DNA of 64,000 bases. Origin: a plasmid. Position 1 is the stretch's first letter; the number at the start of each line of letters is the position of its first letter. Where the stretch lies: sequence record NZ_CP092205.1; one strand, written 5' to 3'. The notes under the pieces were generated by a model. The model had not been told where the DNA came from, searched no databases, and saw only the letters and a program-made list of their open reading frames with translations. This document shows positions 36,438-61,656 of the stretch, in pieces. Made by a program: the position numbers and the translations under genes.

Positions 36438-38099
<1,662 letters not shown>

Positions 38100-41580: not shown

Positions 41581-43209
41581 CTAAAAAACTAAATCCTTGT
41601 CCGGTTCAAATTCCTCTTCGAATTCTTCATTTGACTCTTCGTCGTCTATCCCGTTTTCATTTTGTTCGGGATTTTCATCATATCCCATTTCAGAATAATC
41701 CTGACTTTGAACAGCTCCCGTAGCGTTTTGCTGGATTTGCATCATATTCTGTTGAAAAATTGGATTTAATATGAGGGCTCCTGCCATTTTGTAATCTTCA
41801 ACCGGAACGCCATAGAGATCGGCGAGTGTTTCGCCCACTGTCGGATCATCTTGTGCAATTCGAATTTCATCCACGAGTTTCCAATTCATTACTTCGTCTT
41901 TTTGTTTTTGAATTTTATCCTTCTCATCTTCCGGATCCTTTCCGCTAAATTCGCAAACAATCCCTCCGAAATCATCTTCCCGAAAATTTTTGAGTCTCGT
42001 AAACGCAGATTCAAAGTAAGTTAAAAGACTAAGTTTAGCACGAGTCATCGAGTGCTTGCTTTTTTCGGTTTGGTTTGCTTCTGATAAAGATTGTGAACCG
42101 ATAAGACGCAAGCCTAATTCCGATTGATCCATTCCATGGCCCATGAGTACAAGACTCACGCACCACTGCATGAGATCTTTAAATACCATTTCATTCGGAA
42201 TGTTGAGTGGTGTCCATTTTACCTCACCCGCAGAAGTACCCAAAATCGGAATGCGATGGGAGTCATCGAGGCCTGAAATCATTTCTTGCCATTGAAGCTG
42301 AAGAGAATCTAACGCTTCTTGGCTGATATCACCTTGGAAAGAGAGATAACCGTAAGGATGTTGTCTGGAAAACGTATCTCGATTGAATTTTAGAGAATTG
42401 ATAACGCCAACAAGATCGAGCATACAGGCCTCTAATGGAGAAAAGCCAAAGCCCCTCATGGAAACGTCTGAAAGATGATTTTTGTGAAGCCAAAGAATTT
42501 CGTTCGCTCCAAACGTCTCGACTATGTTGTCATCGATGATTTGAACATACGCAATGGAACGATCTCCTCTGTACCCTTTTGCGGGATCCACGGGAAAAAT
42601 TGTCGCAGGATCCAAATATCTGATTTCGATTAACTTGCCGAAGGGATTAAAAATTAGAAAAAACGCGATTGAATCGATAGTGAGAGTATCTCTCGTCATC
42701 ATTTCGAAAACAGAACCTAGGTGATCGCGATTTGCCCAACCGGCCGTTAAATCACCCATCTTATCAAACCATTTACCGCATCGTTTCATACGAGTGCTGA
42801 TTTCATCCGTTACCTCTTCATCCTCGTCTTCCATTCGAAACCACAAACCACATTTGGAACTGATCCGCGCAAACTTACTCAAGTCCTCAACGCGAACCGT
42901 ATGAATTGCAGAAATCAAAGAAGTGCCGTAACTGGCACTGCGAAGATGAGGAATAGGGATTCTCCAAGTCGGCCGCAACTGAATCCCATCTCGGATTTGT
43001 TGCATCTGATCGTAGTTATATACGGGATTACGGCCGGCGACTTCCGGAGTGTTCACTTGACCGAACCAGGATTTAGCAAGGTGTAAGAGTCTTTGATTGA
43101 TCTTTTCGTTTTTAAGTCCGATCTCTTTGGAACGTTCCAGTCTGATTCTCTTTTCAAGATTCTTTTCATAATCATTTCCACGCGGCCGGCCTTTCCCTTG
43201 TTTCACCAT
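41581..43209 (-). CDS. portal-like protein (tentative)
   Basis: 542 aa with strongly acidic C-terminus; size and composition only. Confidence 0.3.
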   Translation of the reverse strand: MVKQGKGRPRGNDYEKNLEKRIRLERSKEIGLKNEKINQRLLHLAKSWFGQVNTPEVAGRNPVYNYDQMQQIRDGIQLRPTWRIPIPHLRSASYGTSLISAIHTVRVEDLSKFARISSKCGLWFRMEDEDEEVTDEISTRMKRCGKWFDKMGDLTAGWANRDHLGSVFEMMTRDTLTIDSIAFFLIFNPFGKLIEIRYLDPATIFPVDPAKGYRGDRSIAYVQIIDDNIVETFGANEILWLHKNHLSDVSMRGFGFSPLEACMLDLVGVINSLKFNRDTFSRQHPYGYLSFQGDISQEALDSLQLQWQEMISGLDDSHRIPILGTSAGEVKWTPLNIPNEMVFKDLMQWCVSLVLMGHGMDQSELGLRLIGSQSLSEANQTEKSKHSMTRAKLSLLTYFESAFTRLKNFREDDFGGIVCEFSGKDPEDEKDKIQKQKDEVMNWKLVDEIRIAQDDPTVGETLADLYGVPVEDYKMAGALILNPIFQQNMMQIQQNATGAVQSQDYSEMGYDENPEQNENGIDDEESNEEFEEEFEPDKDLVF

Positions 43210-44208: not shown

Positions 44209-45150
44209 ATGAGTTTCGGATACGACGGCGACTTAAATCAACAGTCCGAAGATTACGAATATCACGACCTGTCCGCTCGAATTTATCCCGAAGTACAGGC
44301 GAGTGGCAAACCTCTCCCAAATTGGGGAACTTTAATCCATCCGGATGAACTTCGCCGAATCGTTTTTTTCGGAAACGAACCTCTCCTAACAACACGCGGA
44401 ACTCAATTGGAAGATTTTCAGTTAAAGAATTGGGTCGATCAAACGATTCGCGCTTTTGCAAACGAAATCGATTGGGATATTTATCCCAGGCTTTTTAGAA
44501 GCAGACCTCTTCCCGGACAAAATGGAAGATTCGATTTAGAACCGAATAGCGGCAGTATCGAAGATTATGCAGAATGGGATGATGTTTACGATTATGATTC
44601 CACGAAAGGAACAAACTTCTTTTTAAAATTAAGAAGGAAGAATTTGTGTCGTTTGCACCGTTGGGTTCTTACCTATCCTTGGAACGGATCCACATTGATC
44701 GATCTAACTCACAAAGCAACGATTCAATACAAAACCGGAGTTCTAAGAGCGGTCTATACGCGAGCTCCTTGGGGTAATATGCCCATACCGACTATGGGAA
44801 TTCAAGCATGGCGCGGGATCACCGGTTCAACTGGCACCTTACCGGGAGCGTATCAAGTAGATTACACAACCGGATACGATCATGCGTCCCGAGTTCCGAG
44901 AGAATTAAAAGATCAAATTTTCAAGTACTTTGCAATCTGTCTTTTGTCTTCCTACGGAGAAGGGATCATCGGAGGCGTCGCCAATTACTCAACCTCAGTC
45001 GGTGTTATTAGCGAAAGTATAGGGACGACGATGAGCGCTGAGAACGCATTTTTCGGAGCCCGCATCAAACAACTCAGTAATGAGCTTAAAGATTGGTGGA
45101 AAACAGGAAAACTCAGATATACGGGAATTAGTTTTGGTGCGTTAGGATAG
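44209..45150 (+). CDS. hypothetical protein
   Basis: 313-aa ORF. Confidence 0.4.
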   Translation: MSFGYDGDLNQQSEDYEYHDLSARIYPEVQASGKPLPNWGTLIHPDELRRIVFFGNEPLLTTRGTQLEDFQLKNWVDQTIRAFANEIDWDIYPRLFRSRPLPGQNGRFDLEPNSGSIEDYAEWDDVYDYDSTKGTNFFLKLRRKNLCRLHRWVLTYPWNGSTLIDLTHKATIQYKTGVLRAVYTRAPWGNMPIPTMGIQAWRGITGSTGTLPGAYQVDYTTGYDHASRVPRELKDQIFKYFAICLLSSYGEGIIGGVANYSTSVGVISESIGTTMSAENAFFGARIKQLSNELKDWWKTGKLRYTGISFGALG

Positions 45151-46470: not shown

Positions 46471-46809
46471 ATGACCCCGCCATTAAAAGCCAAAGACGTT
46501 TTGGGCATTCAACCGGATTCGAAGGAAGCCCGTGAATTAGAATCCAAACTAAAATACTCGATCATAGTCAACAAAAGTGTTTTCAGGAGAAGTAACCAAG
46601 CCTTCTGGCTCGGTTTATTTTTCGTCCTTGTCGGTCTGTATATACTTTATACCTCACCCGATCAAAAAATATCCGAGGGTTTTGGTGGAGTCAGTGTTCA
46701 CGGACTCTTTCTTACTTCCGGAATCGTTCTGATGTCCTGGTTTAAGACGGGCGAAATTTTGAAAGCCGTCGGTGAGTTTATCTCAAAAGCGAGGGGAGGT
46801 AATCCATGA
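46471..46809 (+). CDS. holin-like small membrane protein
   Basis: 112 aa, two TM helices, charged C-terminus. Confidence 0.4.
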   Translation: MTPPLKAKDVLGIQPDSKEARELESKLKYSIIVNKSVFRRSNQAFWLGLFFVLVGLYILYTSPDQKISEGFGGVSVHGLFLTSGIVLMSWFKTGEILKAVGEFISKARGGNP

Positions 46810-47273: not shown

Positions 47274-47299
47274 AGACCCTGAAAAAAGGGTCTTTTTTT
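47274..47299 (+). terminator. rho-independent terminator
   Basis: AGACCC-tgaaaaaa-GGGTCT hairpin followed by TTTTTT. Confidence 0.55.
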
Positions 47300-47372
47300 A
47301 TTGATCGTAAATATAATTATTCTAATATTGCTATTTCATGCTGGAGCAATTTTATTGCTCAAGAGATATTAT

Positions 47373-48401
47373 ATGACAATTTTTAAAGCAATAAAATTTT
47401 CCCAGAATGGTATCGATTTATTTTCATTTATAGCCACTTCAAAATTCATTTATGAAAATTTTGAAGTTTCAAAAAGAGTTAAAGACAAAGAACAGGGATA
47501 TCAGAGATCTTTTTCAAGCACTCGCATTAAAGAGCTATCAAAACATATAACCAAAGATGCAAATATTATCCCGAATTCAATTTTGGTAAATATTGACTCT
47601 GGATTCTTAAATTATAACGAAAATAAAAATGAATTAGAACTTCCTGATTCAACTTCTCTAGGATTAATTATTGATGGCCAACATCGGGTAAAAGGAGCAT
47701 TTGAAGGTAATCAAGATTTTCTATTACCTGTGATTGCTACGGTAGGCCTAAGTACAAAAGAACAAGCCAAGCTTTTCGTCACAATAAATAAAACTCAAAA
47801 AGGAGTCCCTGTTTCATTATATTTAGACCTACTTAACCTAACTGAGGGTGAAATAGAGAACTTCGATGACGAGTCAGTCCCTACCGAAAGAAGAGCTGCT
47901 GAAATTGCTAGGCGATTAAACGAAGACGAGGAAAGTCCATTGGTAGACCTAATTCGTATGACAGGTGAACCGGGGAGAGGGATTGCTTTGAATGAATTTG
48001 TAAATAGGTCAAAATATTTACTCGATTCAAGAAAGGGAAAGTTAATTGATTTTGGATTTGAACAACAATATTTAATTTTCAAAGTTTATTTTCGAGCTTG
48101 GAAAGCTGTATTCATCGATCAGTGGAAAGATGAAAGCTCGCAAATTCTTAAACAAACTTCTTTTAGTGGCTTATTATTAGCCCTATATGATATATTTCAA
48201 CTAACGATGCAATACTATAAATTATTCAACACGGATAATTTAATAAAACTTTTGAACAATATCGCTGATTTTAAATTTTCATCCGACAACATTATTTCAG
48301 GTGGTATAAAAGCCCAAGAAAATGTAGCGACTACATTAATAAACAAATTAAAGAGCCAACTTCGCGAGACAAATAATAATATCAACCTAATCGAGGAATA
48401 A
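47373..48401 (+). CDS. DGQHR-domain (DndB/DpdB-like, ParB superfamily) protein
   Basis: LGLIIDGQHRVKGA and downstream LFVTINKTQKGV motifs. ORF-track start 47301 (TTG) abuts the terminator, so ATG 47373 is the likely start. Confidence 0.6.
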   Translation: MTIFKAIKFSQNGIDLFSFIATSKFIYENFEVSKRVKDKEQGYQRSFSSTRIKELSKHITKDANIIPNSILVNIDSGFLNYNENKNELELPDSTSLGLIIDGQHRVKGAFEGNQDFLLPVIATVGLSTKEQAKLFVTINKTQKGVPVSLYLDLLNLTEGEIENFDDESVPTERRAAEIARRLNEDEESPLVDLIRMTGEPGRGIALNEFVNRSKYLLDSRKGKLIDFGFEQQYLIFKVYFRAWKAVFIDQWKDESSQILKQTSFSGLLLALYDIFQLTMQYYKLFNTDNLIKLLNNIADFKFSSDNIISGGIKAQENVATTLINKLKSQLRETNNNINLIEE

Positions 48402-48402
48402 A

Positions 48403-49302
48403 ATGCAACTCTGGGAAATTGCATTAGCGTTCAATAAATGTACAGGCGACGAAATTAAGTCCTTCAAAAATTATTTTCATGATTTATATTTATCAAATAG
48501 CGAATTAGACAATGGGGTAGTAGTAAAAGGATCATATAATTTTATACTATCCGATGTCGAAAAATTAATCACGAAAATTATTTCTAATTTAATATCCTCC
48601 TTTCTTCTAAATAAAGAAGGCATGATAAGTTGGGGATATGTAACAGCCTATTACGCCAACTATTTTTCGTTCCAAGCTCTCAACAGGCTTCATCTAAATT
48701 TTATTTCATATTCTGAGTCTCTATATTCTTGCACATTCATAAATTATATTAATAATGAACTTTTGGTCAAAAAGTCTGATACAAGCAAAACACATATTAG
48801 AGAATATCAACTCTACGCCGAAAAAAGAAACAAAATGTCATTGGAATCGAGTCCTGATCGACTTTGGAGTATTGCCAATTCAAGATTTACTTTCGGAGAC
48901 GAAGTTAACCTAAGAAATGAAATAAATTACTCAATTTCACAAGATAATTTTTCTGAATTTTTAATGACGAAAACCGAATTTGACCAATTAAAATCTCATT
49001 ATAAGAATTCTCCATTCATAAAACCATTAGATCTTGATAAAGAATTTAGATACTCATACGAATCCATGAAATATGGACTTAGCAGGTTACGTGTAATTAT
49101 GTACATCCTAAATAAAATTGCGAATGAAAGCAATCTCTACTCAAGTTATTATATTCGAAGAAACAATCATAGACTAAGAAGCATTGAAGAAAACTTCAAG
49201 AACGAACTCCCAATGTGGATGGTTCAATACTTTAATGAAATTTTAATTTTTCTCGAAATGGATAAAGAGGAAAAGATCCTTCCCTCCGAAGTTAAAAACT
49301 GA
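48403..49302 (+). CDS. hypothetical protein, translationally coupled partner of the DGQHR protein
   Basis: ATG 1 nt after the DGQHR stop; 299 aa, no recognised motif. Confidence 0.4.
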   Translation: MQLWEIALAFNKCTGDEIKSFKNYFHDLYLSNSELDNGVVVKGSYNFILSDVEKLITKIISNLISSFLLNKEGMISWGYVTAYYANYFSFQALNRLHLNFISYSESLYSCTFINYINNELLVKKSDTSKTHIREYQLYAEKRNKMSLESSPDRLWSIANSRFTFGDEVNLRNEINYSISQDNFSEFLMTKTEFDQLKSHYKNSPFIKPLDLDKEFRYSYESMKYGLSRLRVIMYILNKIANESNLYSSYYIRRNNHRLRSIEENFKNELPMWMVQYFNEILIFLEMDKEEKILPSEVKN

Positions 49303-49579
49303 TTCACTTTTCGATTTTCAAATACAAGTTTCTTTTTTAAAGTTGTTTGTCACAGACTCAATCGGCAGGGCGAAGTTATGGCTATTTGTCCTTGAGAATT
49401 TTCTATTTAGCTCAAACTGCCGCCACTTGCAGATAGCGAAATAGGCTTCTCGACGTTTGCGATCCTGAAGCGCTTCCGCGCGAAGTGACAAAGCAAATGT
49501 GCCAAAGGGCCAAGCGAGAGTCGCGGAACGATCTCGAAGCGCCGCGAGAAGCCGCGGTTAGGCGATGGAAGCGCATTTA

Positions 49580-50437
49580 TTAAGAAAGTTCCATGATAAA
49601 CTTATAAATAGCACCCTCTTCTTCCAAAGCTCTAACTTTCTTAGCTAATAATTCTTCAAATCGCATTTCTCTATCAATCATAATAAACAATTCCTCTACA
49701 GTCAGTAATATAAATCTAGATTGATTATTATTATATTTTTGGAAAATATATTCACTAAATCCTGAAAAACTGATAAATAAACCTCTAGTAAAATGTGACT
49801 TGGAAGTAATTTTATCTGTGAATATTCTTAAATCATCAACTCCTATTAAATCTCTTTTCCATTTTGCTTCTAAAAGATAAGTATCTTTATTAAAAATAAA
49901 GCTGCCATCAATTTGTTCACCCGTAATTTTATATGGAGTTCTTGGACTTAAATTGAAAGAAGCAAATAAATAGTTTAGGTATCTTTCGAATTCATATCCG
50001 CGTTCATTAGGTTTTTCAATTAGAGTAACTTGGTATAATTTCTTTTTTAAATCTGGAAAATTAACTTTAGCTTCTGGTTTTATTTTTTCTTCATTTGTAT
50101 TTTTTTGTTTAAGATCATTTTTACCTAATAAGCGTCTTGCAATCCCTGCGCAGAAATTGAAATCATCTATCTCATTCGTATGAATTCCTAAAATTTCTTT
50201 TTGATATTTGAGAAGTTCATTTATTAACTTACCTGCAAATATATCTTCTTGCTCTCTCAGAAGTGATCGCAAAATATTAGCTTTAGAAAGATCAGGGTAT
50301 AGTTTATATATGTCAATTTTTAAACAATCCAGTATAAACTCTTGAAAAGTCCTGTTCGTAAAATTTAATACATAACCCGAACTCATCCCGAATAAAATCT
50401 CTATCTTTTGCTTTTCAATAAAACTTAAGGATGCCAT
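49580..50437 (-). CDS. Mrr-like PD-(D/E)xK restriction endonuclease-domain protein
   Basis: C-terminal GYEFERYLNYLF…GEQIDGSFIFNKDTYLLEAKWKRDLIGVDDLRIF fits the Mrr_cat E…D…EAK motif. N-terminal ~150 aa unknown. Confidence 0.5.
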   Translation of the reverse strand: MASLSFIEKQKIEILFGMSSGYVLNFTNRTFQEFILDCLKIDIYKLYPDLSKANILRSLLREQEDIFAGKLINELLKYQKEILGIHTNEIDDFNFCAGIARRLLGKNDLKQKNTNEEKIKPEAKVNFPDLKKKLYQVTLIEKPNERGYEFERYLNYLFASFNLSPRTPYKITGEQIDGSFIFNKDTYLLEAKWKRDLIGVDDLRIFTDKITSKSHFTRGLFISFSGFSEYIFQKYNNNQSRFILLTVEELFIMIDREMRFEELLAKKVRALEEEGAIYKFIMELS

Positions 50438-50838
50438 TTTTAGACTTAAAATTTTAAGAATAATTTTGATGAGTTAAGTTTGTTATAAGATTGCTTATTC
50501 AAGAATTCCATTTAATTTTGTGCTTCTGTCGCCTAACTATTAATCTACGCACGTCTTATAAACACCTAAAAATAACTGAATATACGAATATCTTAAAACC
50601 CCGGAATCTATCAATCCCAAAAGTTTAGAAAATAGAGTTGTAACGCAGTTCAACGAGACGGATGGATGATTCTCAAAAACTATTTGGAGTTGATTCTTAT
50701 GTGATGCAACAGGCCACTTCCGATAATGTAGATTTGGTCTCATTAGTGAACATTTGTTCATAAACGTACCCATTCATCCTTTACACATCGTACTCAATAC
50801 AAGCTTTACAAAAAGAAACGTATATATGTAACTCACGT

Positions 50839-52062
<1,224 letters not shown>

Positions 52063-52662
52063 AAGATTTGTAAAGGATGTAATGAGTTAGTTTTGTAAGC
52101 GATGAAATGAGTACTTACCTTCATAAACGTACCCATTCATCCTTTAGCGCATCGGTAACACTCTATACCGGAAACATGAGTTACACTTTATTCGTTGTAG
52201 TTGTACACAGGTGTTTCGTATTTCAATACTTTTCCTGTAAATAAATCTTACACAAACGCAATCGAATCTATGAATATGGGCCTGAGGAAAATTATCAAGA
52301 ATCGAGATTCGTTGCCCAACGATAAAGCCGCAGTCAAATTTTTATTTGGCTTTGAATAATATGTCCAAAAAATGGGCTATGCCCATTCAAGATTGGGATG
52401 ACGAGCGATCCTTAGAGCGAGTCGCTGAGTTCAAGCGATGAATCAGTTTTCGATTCTTTTCGGAGAGTTACTGAGATTAGATTCGTTTTAAAGTATGTCA
52501 TTTATACAATATTGCTGACACTTCAAAGATTGCGGGAACTCCTCTCACAATCTTTGAAAAAATCCGTCGCTATTTGCACTTATTTTTGTAATGAGCAAAT
52601 TAAACGAAAGAACTTCGTCTACAAAGAATACGGGCAATACCTGCCACTCTAATTACACGCGT

Positions 52663-52872
52663 CTATTTTTTACTTAGAATGTCTGAGTCTCGAAGATCTT
52701 GCTCCGTGAGGCCTGTGATTTCCAGGATAGTCTTTAGATCGATCCCTTTTTGAAGCATTTTACCGGCTGTTTCTAGTTTCCCTTTTTCAATACCCTTCTC
52801 GATACCCTGGCGCATCCCTTCAGAAATGAGCCTTTCCGCGGTTGTCATCGTCAATTCCTCATATTGTTCCAA
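52663..52872 (-). CDS. stand-alone duplicate of the Rpn C-terminal tail (RpnS-like small protein candidate)
   Basis: 69 aa ~85% identical to the last ~70 aa of the upstream Rpn ORF ([18 protein letters not shown]…[12 protein letters not shown]…[16 protein letters not shown]…). Confidence 0.45.
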
Positions 52873-52884
52873 TTTAGATCTGCT

Positions 52885-53847
52885 TTAGAGAAATCCATTT
52901 TCCTTGAGGGTCTTTTCGGTAAGGCCTGTGATTTCCAGGATAGTCTTTAGATCGATCCCTTTCTTTAGCATCTTACCGGCATCTTCCAGTTTCCCTTTTT
53001 CAATACCTTTTTCAATGCCCTTCTCGATACCTTGCTCGATACCCTTCTCGATACCTTGTTGTATCCCTTCCGAAATGAGTCTTTCCGCGGTTGTCATCGT
53101 CAATTCCTCATATTGTTCCAATTTAGATCGTTGAAGGACTCCCTTCAATTCCGATGGCTTCAAATCTCGAACCCAGTAAATATACAATAACAGTTTCCGT
53201 AAGATTGCAACCCTTTTCGATTCTTCCTCGACTCCAAGTAATAGGGAAAATAACCCCGGTAAGTGAGAAATGAGTTCCAAATCCCCTTCCCGGATTTTTT
53301 GAACCACTCCCAGAGTCACTTGAAACGTGATACTTTCCAACTTCTCCTTCAATTCTATTCCTTTCAAATCGAACAAGTCGATCCTAAAATCCGGAATAAA
53401 GTCCTTGAGAATTTCCGTTTCTTGTTTCGTTAGAATGAATTGTTCCAAAAATCGATCTCCCAATTTCCATTCCTTTTCTCCGTGATAGAATACGAACGGA
53501 ATGACTACGGAAAGAGGCTCTCCATTCCTTTGTTGGTTTCGATAGATTTCTGTGAGATATCCGAGTAGTTGGATGTAGATGCTATTTTCTAAATAACTTT
53601 TGTGTTCGAAGAGTAAATACACGTTGGTCCGATTTCCGGACCTGAGCGGGATTTGGAACAGTAGATCGGTTTGTTCTTGTTTTAATTCTTCGCTTACAAA
53701 ACTCGATTCGGACAATTCTAAGTTTTCCAAGTCAAGTAGTTCTACCACTTCCCGCGGGAGTGTGTTTTTGAAGAAAGTGGCTGCCTCTTTTTTGTCTTGA
53801 AATGTTTCTCGGATCAATCGATCGTGCGGATTGTTCACTTCGGTCAT
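52885..53847 (-). CDS. Rpn-family (YhgA-like) recombination-promoting nuclease / putative transposase
   Basis: N-terminal [26 protein letters not shown]… and …[10 protein letters not shown]… motifs, GIEKGIE repeat tail; 320 aa. Confidence 0.65.
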
Positions 53848-58051: not shown

Positions 58052-58469
58052 TCAAAGTTCGCCATAAACAGATGTTGAAGTAAATTGATTGAAATCAAAT
58101 AATTCGGAAGACTTATTAGCACCTGGAATTCCTGTTGAAGTATCGACACGATCAAATCCAGATGCTATAAAAATTTTCGATCCATTAACTAAATTAGCCG
58201 TATGTCCCGATCTCTTCGTTTGCATCTGTCCAGACCCTACAACTGTCATACTTCCTGTATCATATAACTCACAAGAAGAAAGAATAGGAGATCCCGTAAG
58301 AATTTGATTCCCCCCACATAATATAATTCTATTTGAGGCAGTAGAGACGGCAGTATGCCCTACCCTAAACTCACTTATATTTCCTACCGAAGAAAATGTA
58401 TTCAAACCTGAATCATATAATTCCACTACTTTCGTATTCGATACGAAAGGCGGAGTTGTTACTTTATAA
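58052..58469 (-). pseudogene. Kelch-repeat lipoprotein gene, 3' fragment (split by IS66 copy 2)
   Basis: Kelch-like …GHTA…LCGGN… repeats; the ORF-track start at 58507 lies inside the IS end. Confidence 0.5.
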
Positions 58470-58528
58470 GTAACCACCCAACTAACCACACCTTCCGCTA
58501 ATTTCAAAAATCTGTTAAAATCCTTTTA

Positions 58529-59196: not shown

Positions 59197-60858
<1,662 letters not shown>

Positions 60859-60866
60859 TCGCTTAC

Positions 60867-61656
60867 CTTTATAACCTCCGGTTACTAAAACATTTCCATT
60901 AGATAAAAGATTCGCCACATGCAAAGTTCGAGAAACACTTAAACTTCCTGATGAGGAAAATGTCAACGTGGTCGGATCAAAAAGCTCAGAAGTAGCGACA
61001 GTAGCTTGGCCATTATCCAATCCGCCAATGATTAAAATTTTACCATTGTTTAATTTGGTAGAAGTATGAAGGCAACGATTGAAATTTAAATTACCAGCAG
61101 GAGCAATTGTAAGGTTAGTAGGATCAAATAGTTCTACACTTCTTAAAATAGAATCTGCCTTTCCTCCTGCAATAAGCACTCTACCATCATTCAAAAGATC
61201 TAAACTAAAATCTGAACGGCCTTGATTTAAATTTGGCCCACTAATTATAGAATTTGTTAAAGGATCGTAAATTTCAGTTTGAATTAAAGGAGGAGCAGCA
61301 TTCGACGCCGCGCTTAACGGACTAGGATTACCGCCAACGATAAAGACTCTTCCATCCAATAGACGAATAGATTTAAAATTTGAACGCGCAAACCTCATGC
61401 TATTTACTTGAAATATAGTATTTTGAATAGGATCAAATTGAAAGATATCATTATATACTTTGAAACCATTTTGACCGCCTATTATCAAAATATTATTCCC
61501 GATCGGGACAGAAACATGGCCATATCTACCATATTTCTGCGCATTAATTAACAAAAGAGCAAGTAAACCTAATTTTTTAGTATCATCGTCATCTGATGGA
61601 TTACATTGCAAAAAAAGAAATGCCCCAATCAGAAATTTAACAAATAAGTATTTCAT
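60867..61656 (-). pseudogene. Kelch-repeat lipoprotein gene, 5' fragment (split by IS66 copy 2)
   Basis: Signal peptide plus lipobox (FLQC), Kelch-like GG…repeats. The ORF reads through into the IS. Confidence 0.5.

Follow-up and report, generated by a model that had tools for sequence, protein, structure and literature searches.

The stretch of DNA analysed here (the window) comprises 64,000 nucleotides (nt) of sequence record NZ_CP092205.1 from Leptospira weilii, and the subject of the analysis is a pair of adjacent genes in it, in the following called A and B, which lie on the plus strand at 47373..48401 and 48403..49302, respectively. Gene A encodes a DGQHR-domain protein of 342 amino acids (aa), which is of the DndB/DpdB type with a ParB/Srx-fold, and gene B encodes a protein of 299 aa, which belongs to a rare, unannotated family and has a predicted HEPN-like helical core. 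The two genes share a small AT-rich islet with a third gene, C. A and B are a real, rare, and conserved two-gene module, and the B family is found almost only together with DGQHR proteins. By analogy to known systems, A-B in Leptospira weilii could be a self-contained module that acts as a stand-alone, type-IV-like system or by abortive infection, and we consider the chances that this reading is right to be about even.

Gene A scores 144.1 bits against the TIGR03187 DGQHR model (cut-off 58.85) and 49.4 bits against the Pfam DndB family PF14072 (cut-off 29.1, E 4.7e-13). The open reading frame (ORF) holding A, 47301-48401 on the plus strand, contains the sequences IIDGQHRVKG and FVTINKTQKGV, from which A had already been called a DGQHR protein in an earlier interpretation made from the letters alone (the sequence-only reading), and this assignment is confirmed by the model scores. 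The translation of A almost certainly starts at ATG 47373 and ends with the TAA at 48399-48401, because the NCBI protein has 342 aa, homologues have lengths of 340-349 aa, and the alternative TTG at 47301 abuts the T-run of a terminator. The DGQHR domain is defined by a QR pair, the DGQHR motif, and an FxxxN motif (PMC4619093). An alignment of 42 members of the A subfamily has Q44 and R45 (the QR pair), D101, Q103, F135, and N139 in every sequence, while conservation reaches at least 90 % for G102, H104, and R105. A remains below the DpdB equivalog model NF041060 (86.5 bits versus 300) and below TIGR04172, the phosphorothioation-associated DGQHR protein 1 (75.9 bits versus 450), and does not match the DndB equivalog TIGR03233 (cut-off 328) at E <= 0.1. 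Within PADLOC-DB v2.0.0, A matches DpdB with E 2.5e-25 and DndB only weakly (E 0.0011, 16 bits), B and C match none of the models, and no system is complete. A is a genuine member of the DGQHR family, but neither DndB proper nor DpdB proper. At an identity of at least 45 %, the A subfamily comprises about 100 clusters that are mostly cyanobacterial and otherwise belong to Bacteroidota, one gammaproteobacterial metagenome-assembled genome (MAG), and Gracilibacteria. A few phages carry DGQHR proteins as well, all of them remote from A. A search of the PDB with the sequence of A gave nothing useful, and there is no match of A to NTP_transf_2 in Pfam.

The start codon of A at 47373 is spanned by an imperfect 36-nt inverted repeat (47324-47359 / 47387-47422). 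This repeat may be a candidate autoregulatory operator, as has been described for DndB. A match to the Rfam microRNA family MIR8675 (47327-47413) does not come near the threshold and was rejected as spurious; it is accounted for by the inverted repeat at this place.

Only a single base separates the TAA of A from the ATG of B at 48403, as the sequence-only reading had stated, and a GAGGA is present within the last codons of A. Judging from this layout, A and B are almost certainly translationally coupled. The proposal of an operonic two-gene module is borne out by the homologues. In tblastn searches, 36 of the 37 loci of the clade to which the window belongs had an A homologue immediately upstream of B in the same orientation, the sole exception being a locus with a truncated B fragment (L037 in our numbering of the loci). 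The distance from the stop of A to the start of B ranges from -4 to +29 nt with a median of 5 (26 loci of the window's clade), and GGAG is usually found in the last codons of A. After clustering of all neighbouring ORFs, A and B were the only genes common to all 27 non-redundant loci; beyond these two, only the cyanobacterial acnB, XisH, and XisI genes are conserved in the 27 neighbourhoods. TGT-like or DUF328 genes, which are of the dpd type, were not seen around the members of the window's clade. The findings that the sequence-only reading had named as damaging to its own proposal did not turn up: the DGQHR match is strong, the partner is conserved, and the clade does not reside in dnd or dpd clusters. 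Two loci show decay, namely L032 (Sphaerospermopsis aphanizomenoides), in which A is split into two ORFs, and L037 (Trichormus), which keeps only the truncated B fragment without A.

The B family is small. A word-indexed search revealed 8 clusters, and an exhaustive search with a profile through 1.84 billion representatives yielded 65 relatives at E <= 1e-3 (counted as clusters at 50 % identity), with 34 at E <= 1e-10. B had been described as a partner without any recognisable domain. This is correct insofar as B has no match in Pfam (E <= 0.1), NCBIfam, PADLOC, or PHROGs, but it does not extend to the predicted structure, whose fold is HEPN-like. The AlphaFold2 model of B has a predicted local distance difference test score (pLDDT) of 78 and a predicted template modelling score (pTM) of 0.81, and is made up of long helices (residues 45-71, 75-96, 211-242, and 244-268), which have a beta-hairpin and short helices between them. 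W77, H131, R171, and Y176 do not vary in any of the 46 members of the B superfamily, and there is almost no variation at Y83, Y84, N172, and N175. The motif E167-x3-R171-N-x-x-N-Y176 has the spacing of the HEPN motif R-[NDH]-x3-H, with a tyrosine at the place of the catalytic histidine. The HEPN variants AF0298 and AbiV keep the basic residue, do not have the motif histidine, and contain a conserved histidine at a more N-terminal position (PMC3710099). The conserved site of B, composed of His131 and R171-N-x-x-N-Y176, resembles this non-canonical AF0298/AbiV-type HEPN site at the level of the sequence. Sub-threshold matches to PF05168 were obtained for 3 of the 46 B relatives, the best with E 0.005, and in the relative P0167 the match extends over profile positions 3-48, which correspond to the first two long helices of B (45-96). 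Based on the model, we have moderate confidence that the core of B adopts a HEPN-like fold.

The B-like proteins of more distant clades are 14-22 % identical to B. A DGQHR gene precedes the distant B-like gene in all four loci that were checked singly and in 35 of the 42 that came from the metagenome scan; of the seven exceptions, three are truncated by a contig edge. The dnd genes are present in about 15 distant loci. In L056, the genes are arranged in the order DndC (TIGR03183 with 379.8 bits versus a cut-off of 290.4), DndD-like, a fusion of DndE to a HerA/FtsK-like ATPase, A, B, and a convergent NifS/DndA-like cysteine desulfurase. In metagenomic clusters of the dnd type, such a DndE fusion of about 494-518 aa is located between the DndD-like gene and A-B, namely at L053:5322-6806, L056:3837-5321, and L066:5226-6782. 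An N6_N4 DNA methylase follows directly after B in 11 distant loci, and five contain a Dam methylase, a DpnII endonuclease, or both, with L089 showing the order Dam-A-B-DpnII. Four distant loci belonging to one clade of the pair (L084-L087) contain a radical-SAM gene encoding about 463-471 aa on the same strand after B, which hints at another modification chemistry. The sister clades of A-B are integrated in DNA-modification and restriction-modification operons, and the link to modification that the sequence-only reading had suggested therefore holds for the wider superfamily. In an average-linkage clustering of the B proteins, the clades with modification context are separate from the clade of the window. 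This latter clade contains 25 full-length loci with 30-100 % identity, and in 24 of these there is no adjacent modification gene. In Myroides, which belongs to the window's clade, a DpnII endonuclease gene is found directly upstream of A.

Compared to known systems, A shares with DndB and DpdB, which belong to the Dnd phosphorothioation and the Dpd 7-deazaguanine systems, respectively, the domain (TIGR03187, PF14072), the QR pair, the DGQHR and FxxxN motifs, and the ParB/Srx fold, and the distant A-B clades hold the position of DndB in dnd clusters. However, A is far under the equivalog cut-offs of both proteins, there are no dnd or dpd genes near the pair in the window, and A comes together with B, while in the literature searched no B-like partner of canonical DndB or DpdB turned up, which was not checked directly. 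DndB-like proteins bind ATP and GTP (bioRxiv 10.1101/2025.10.10.680097), DpdB is a ParB-like ATPase (PMC12839542), and DndB has been reported to be an ATP-dependent repressor of dnd (PMC4507180; PMC10853773). GmrSD, BrxU, and SspE consist of a DUF262 ParB-like nucleoside triphosphatase (NTPase) fused to a DUF1524 HNH nuclease, and are either stand-alone (type IV) or coupled to modification, in the case of SspE to phosphorothioation (PMC4619093; PMC10853773; PMC12839542). By analogy, A-B may similarly combine a DNA sensor of the DGQQR/DGQHR type, which has a ParB fold and binds nucleoside triphosphates (NTPs), with a nuclease effector. In contrast to these fusion proteins, A-B is composed of two polypeptides and its putative effector is HEPN-like and not HNH. 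Hidden Markov models of DUF262 and DUF1524 (Pfam) do not match A or B, and the likeness is functional and architectural only.

In 2013, an in silico study (PMC3710099) pointed out, for the MAE_28990 family of HEPN proteins, a gene arrangement consisting of a ParB-like protein, a HEPN protein, and a DNA methylase; in the literature searched we did not find any other paper mentioning this family. The gene order is like that of the 11 distant loci with A, B, and an N6_N4 methylase, and both are predicted conflict systems. The MAE_28990-type proteins keep the Rx4-6H motif whereas B has R-x4-Y and a distal histidine, a comparison that was made by description and not by sequence. With respect to the AF0298-type HEPN-T proteins (2hsb) and AbiV, B, which has 299 aa, contains extra N-terminal, beta-hairpin, and C-terminal elements, has no detectable sequence homology, and is paired with a DGQHR protein rather than being paired with an MNT protein or being alone. 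The same partner distinguishes B from the HepT/MntA (HEPN-MNT) systems, whose partner is an MNT protein. The logic of the domains is known. The B family with its non-canonical motif, the obligate pairing of the two genes, and the lineage that stands alone are all missing from Pfam, NCBIfam, PADLOC v2, and PHROGs, and we found no description of them in the literature searched.

How could the pair function? Leptospira weilii may have obtained A-B by horizontal transfer, at the site where an LE1-like prophage meets the chromosome. A would be an NTP-binding DNA sensor or switch, a role that is suggested by DndB, by DpdB, and by the DUF262 domains present in SspE, GmrSD, and BrxU. B would be the effector with its HEPN-like core, and would cleave RNA or another nucleic acid once A licenses it. 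Such a cleavage is probable because the conserved site of B resembles the AF0298/AbiV-type HEPN site. The ancestral role of the pair was most likely that of a non-modifying, nucleic-acid-surveying arm of DNA-modification-based immunity, because the related clades are wired into dnd, N6/N4-methylase, and Dam/DpnII operons. The clade of the window would then have turned stand-alone, working in a type-IV-like manner or by abortive infection. It is also conceivable, and we put this forward tentatively as something that we would not call probable, that A-B represents an uncatalogued, self-sufficient immune or abortive system built from a DndB-type NTPase with ParB fold, which reads the state of the DNA, and a non-canonical HEPN effector that the NTPase switches on and whose active site consists of a distal histidine and an R-x4-Y motif, and that the A-B unit is a reader/executioner arm shared by subsets of the dnd, methylase-only, radical-SAM, and Dam/DpnII systems.

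Several observations weigh against an immune function of the pair and against a HEPN-like effector. The canonical HEPN Rx4-6H motif is not present in B, which has an invariant tyrosine for the histidine, and the conserved R/Y motif falls into residues 150-210 of the model, which are of low confidence (pLDDT of about 50). None of the Pfam HEPN models matches B at E <= 0.1, sequence searches of the PDB with B as single query and as profile did not give a match, and a Foldseek search of the PDB with the model gave nothing at E <= 0.001, 2hsb being found only with E 3.5 and a template modelling score of 0.66. PADLOC does not contain a match for B. Neither B relatives nor the A-B pair were found in the viral contigs of IMG/VR, B was not found in the PLSDB plasmids, and the DNA of the islet has no match among the GenBank phages. 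The cyanobacteria, which are the main host group of the pair, contribute further points. A-B adjoins the aconitase B gene (acnB), usually in divergent orientation, in 18 of the 27 non-redundant loci, and pairs of XisH and XisI genes are located farther out. The acnB-adjacent loci (among L012, L015, L017-L034) come from Nostocales, Oscillatoriales, Spirulina, and Picosynechococcus. When carriers are compared in pairs (136 pairs, which are not independent), the identities of A and B follow those of AcnB with Spearman coefficients of 0.66 and 0.72, respectively, and in the deepest comparisons A is more conserved (74-78 % identity) than AcnB (about 70 %). The cyanobacterial pair therefore looks like it has been inherited mainly vertically, under strong constraint and with frequent loss. 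Slow divergence tracking that of AcnB is atypical of a defence gene with fast turnover and could instead reflect a cellular role. The position typical of a defence island, which the sequence-only reading had emphasised, thus applies to Leptospira weilii but not to the cyanobacteria, where the pair is fixed at the side of acnB and evolves slowly.

Of the alternatives to a stand-alone immune module, the one that survives best is that A-B is an orphaned or trans-dependent arm of a modification system, with the methylase or Dnd proteins encoded elsewhere in the genome. The pair would then regulate modification or restrict unmodified DNA, and the copy in the window would be served in trans or be a non-functional leftover. 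The dnd, N6_N4 methylase, and Dam/DpnII contexts of the distant clades agree with such a dependence, as do the DpnII gene next to A in Myroides, inside the window's own clade, the repressor function reported for DndB, and the DNA methylase that the LE1-like phage LnoZ_CZ214 carries roughly where the window carries the islet. However, among the 25 full-length loci that represent the window's clade only one has a modification gene at its side, and no such gene is common to the 27 neighbourhoods. In the 64-kb window itself no homologue of methylases, DndC, DndD, DndE, NifS, or DpnII was detected (the searches included tblastn with DndC, DndD, DndE-fusion, and NifS queries), which agrees with the earlier statement that the pair is outside a dnd or dpd context. 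In addition, neither ORF is disrupted, and members of the clade from several phyla bear clear signs of purifying selection. Therefore, A-B is not a decaying remnant. Taken together we regard a trans-dependent arm as unlikely. That the pair is what remains of a dnd or dpd cluster was rejected for the window's clade, because such genes are neither present in the 64 kb nor shared in the neighbourhoods.

Alternatively, A-B could be a cellular pair for nucleic-acid processing, with a housekeeping or regulatory function and native to cyanobacteria, in which case the Leptospira weilii copy would be an incidental transfer. The acnB adjacency over several cyanobacterial orders and the divergence of A and B in step with AcnB are what would be expected from such a pair. 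Its distribution is very patchy, though: only 19 cyanobacterial species representatives had a match in the genome scan, which used a single pattern built from an alignment of 20 sequences, and the family has its 65 clusters among 1.84 billion proteins. The decay in L032 and L037, the sporadic carriers in Leptospira, Bacteroidota, Alphaproteobacteria, and Gracilibacteria, and the relatives in restriction-modification and dnd operons also speak against a cellular pair, which we consider improbable. Just as improbable is a toxin-antitoxin-like addiction module, in which a HEPN-like toxin B would be neutralised or transcriptionally controlled by A and the islet thereby stabilised, without any anti-phage role. 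With its 342 aa and invariant motifs of the NTP-site type, A is enzyme-like and unlike the small antitoxins, the MNT partner is absent, and neither the long vertical retention at acnB nor the embedding in modification operons would be expected from an addiction module.

The third gene of the islet, C (49580..50437, minus strand), is convergent to B and encodes a solitary Mrr_cat PD-(D/E)xK endonuclease of 285 aa. The prediction of an Mrr-like nuclease is supported by a match to Mrr_cat at aa 147-251 (23.2 bits versus a cut-off of 21) and by the motif D-x12-E-x-K, in which D177 and K192 never vary and E190 hardly does. The N-terminal domain (aa 1-103) is helical, and the PDB sequence search with C gave nothing useful. 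The C family has more than 1,200 clusters with a uniform architecture of about 285 aa, and is found in Leptospiraceae, Clostridia, Listeria, Bacteroidota, and others. The sequence-only reading had placed C in the same candidate defence island, but the only point in favour of a three-gene system with C as effector of A-B is the adjacency on one low-GC islet in one genome. C homologues are present in none of the 37 loci carrying the pair and stand alone in unrelated surroundings in both contexts examined (Hungatella and a Leptospiraceae MAG), and in the window a spacer of 277 nt including a stretch of 53 % GC separates C from B. A three-gene system is thus rejected as extremely improbable, and C is an independent neighbour that shares the islet and is no component of the A-B module. 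An imperfect 19-nt inverted repeat (49557-49575 / 50519-50537) brackets C as if the gene came as a separate cassette. The spacer of 53 % GC (49390..49580) is outside the A-B module; it is not repeated elsewhere in the window, has no Rfam match, and shows no folding signal when compared with shuffled sequence (z -0.7 and -0.15).

The islet differs in composition from its surroundings. Over 47294-50530 the GC content is only 0.31, compared to 0.42 for the prophage upstream and 0.395 for the entire window, which agrees with the AT-rich shift described before. All three genes are real and not ORFs arisen by chance, as their proteins have many full-length homologues, with E-values, self-matches excluded, of about 1e-40 to 1e-194 for A, 1e-41 to 1e-132 for B, and about 1e-62 to 1e-109 for C. 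Each of the proteins is identical (100 %) to a single NCBI entry, all from Leptospira weilii and labelled 'DGQHR domain-containing protein', 'hypothetical protein', and 'restriction endonuclease', respectively, and each of their clusters has one member on one contig. In the genome scan no Leptospira species representative matched, though B fits the scan pattern. The Leptospira weilii copy of A-B is clearly foreign DNA, because its GC content is low, its proteins are singletons in the databases, and no Leptospira representative was matched.

The left edge of the islet is a terminator-like hairpin (AGACCC..GGGTCT) with a T-run at 47274..47300 on the plus strand, the hairpin itself covering 47274-47293. 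It closes the last prophage-type gene and lies upstream of A. Every gene from 38030 to 47243 matches phage protein families, among them a portal gene (41581-43209) and a tail fibre gene (44209-45150), and the DNA of the window shares 67-69 % identity with LE1-like Leptospira phages up to about position 46800. The terminator and the prophage in front of the islet are therefore as the sequence-only reading described them, but its label 'lysis cassette' is not confirmed, because the final phage-type genes before the islet match only PHROGs of unknown function. In the LE1-like phage LnoZ_CZ214 (L042, KF114877, 11500-18400), the end of the homology is followed by two small hypothetical genes, a DNA methylase, an IS66 element, and a His-Xaa-Ser radical-SAM system. 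The methylase is located about 0.7 kb past the end of the homology, which roughly corresponds to the place of the islet in the window. Given this gene content, that end of the LE1-like element is a variable cargo site.

The right edge of the islet is formed by an element of the IS481 family (50757..52146, minus strand) with its transposase at 50839-52062, as had been recognised before. The element is intact: its inverted repeats have 40 nt each (50773-50812 / 52067-52106), and a direct repeat of 27 nt is found at both ends. To the right of it lies a Transposase_31 (Rpn/YhgA-like) gene (52885-53847), whose C-terminal part is duplicated at 52663-52872; the gene and the partial copy have an 85-nt repeat with 88 % identity in common. 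Beyond Transposase_31 the genes are of chromosomal type and include HisKA_7TM, two AraC regulators, and a Kelch-repeat gene (58052-58507 / 60745-61656), which is interrupted by an IS66 copy. The transposase genes of this copy (59197-60858) and of a second one within the LE1-like prophage (36438-38099) are 99.9 % identical, and IS66 seems therefore to have been active recently.

The role of the DGQHR/DndB-type proteins is unsettled, and a repressor, an ATPase, a nuclease, and a nucleotide-depleting enzyme have all been proposed. So far they have been studied only inside the large Dnd and Dpd clusters. A-B provides a minimal two-gene setting for the DGQHR domain, together with a partner family that is contained in no curated database, and close homologues exist in genetically tractable cyanobacteria, e.g. 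in Picosynechococcus sp. PCC 11901. If A-B is a defence or conflict module, it would be a new system for the defence catalogues, and the unannotated gene found repeatedly in dnd, methylase, and DpnII operons would have a function. In addition, a HEPN variant with a tyrosine in place of the catalytic histidine would become open to study. If the pair is inactive against invaders, its conservation at the side of acnB would point to an unrecognised cellular role of a DndB-like protein.

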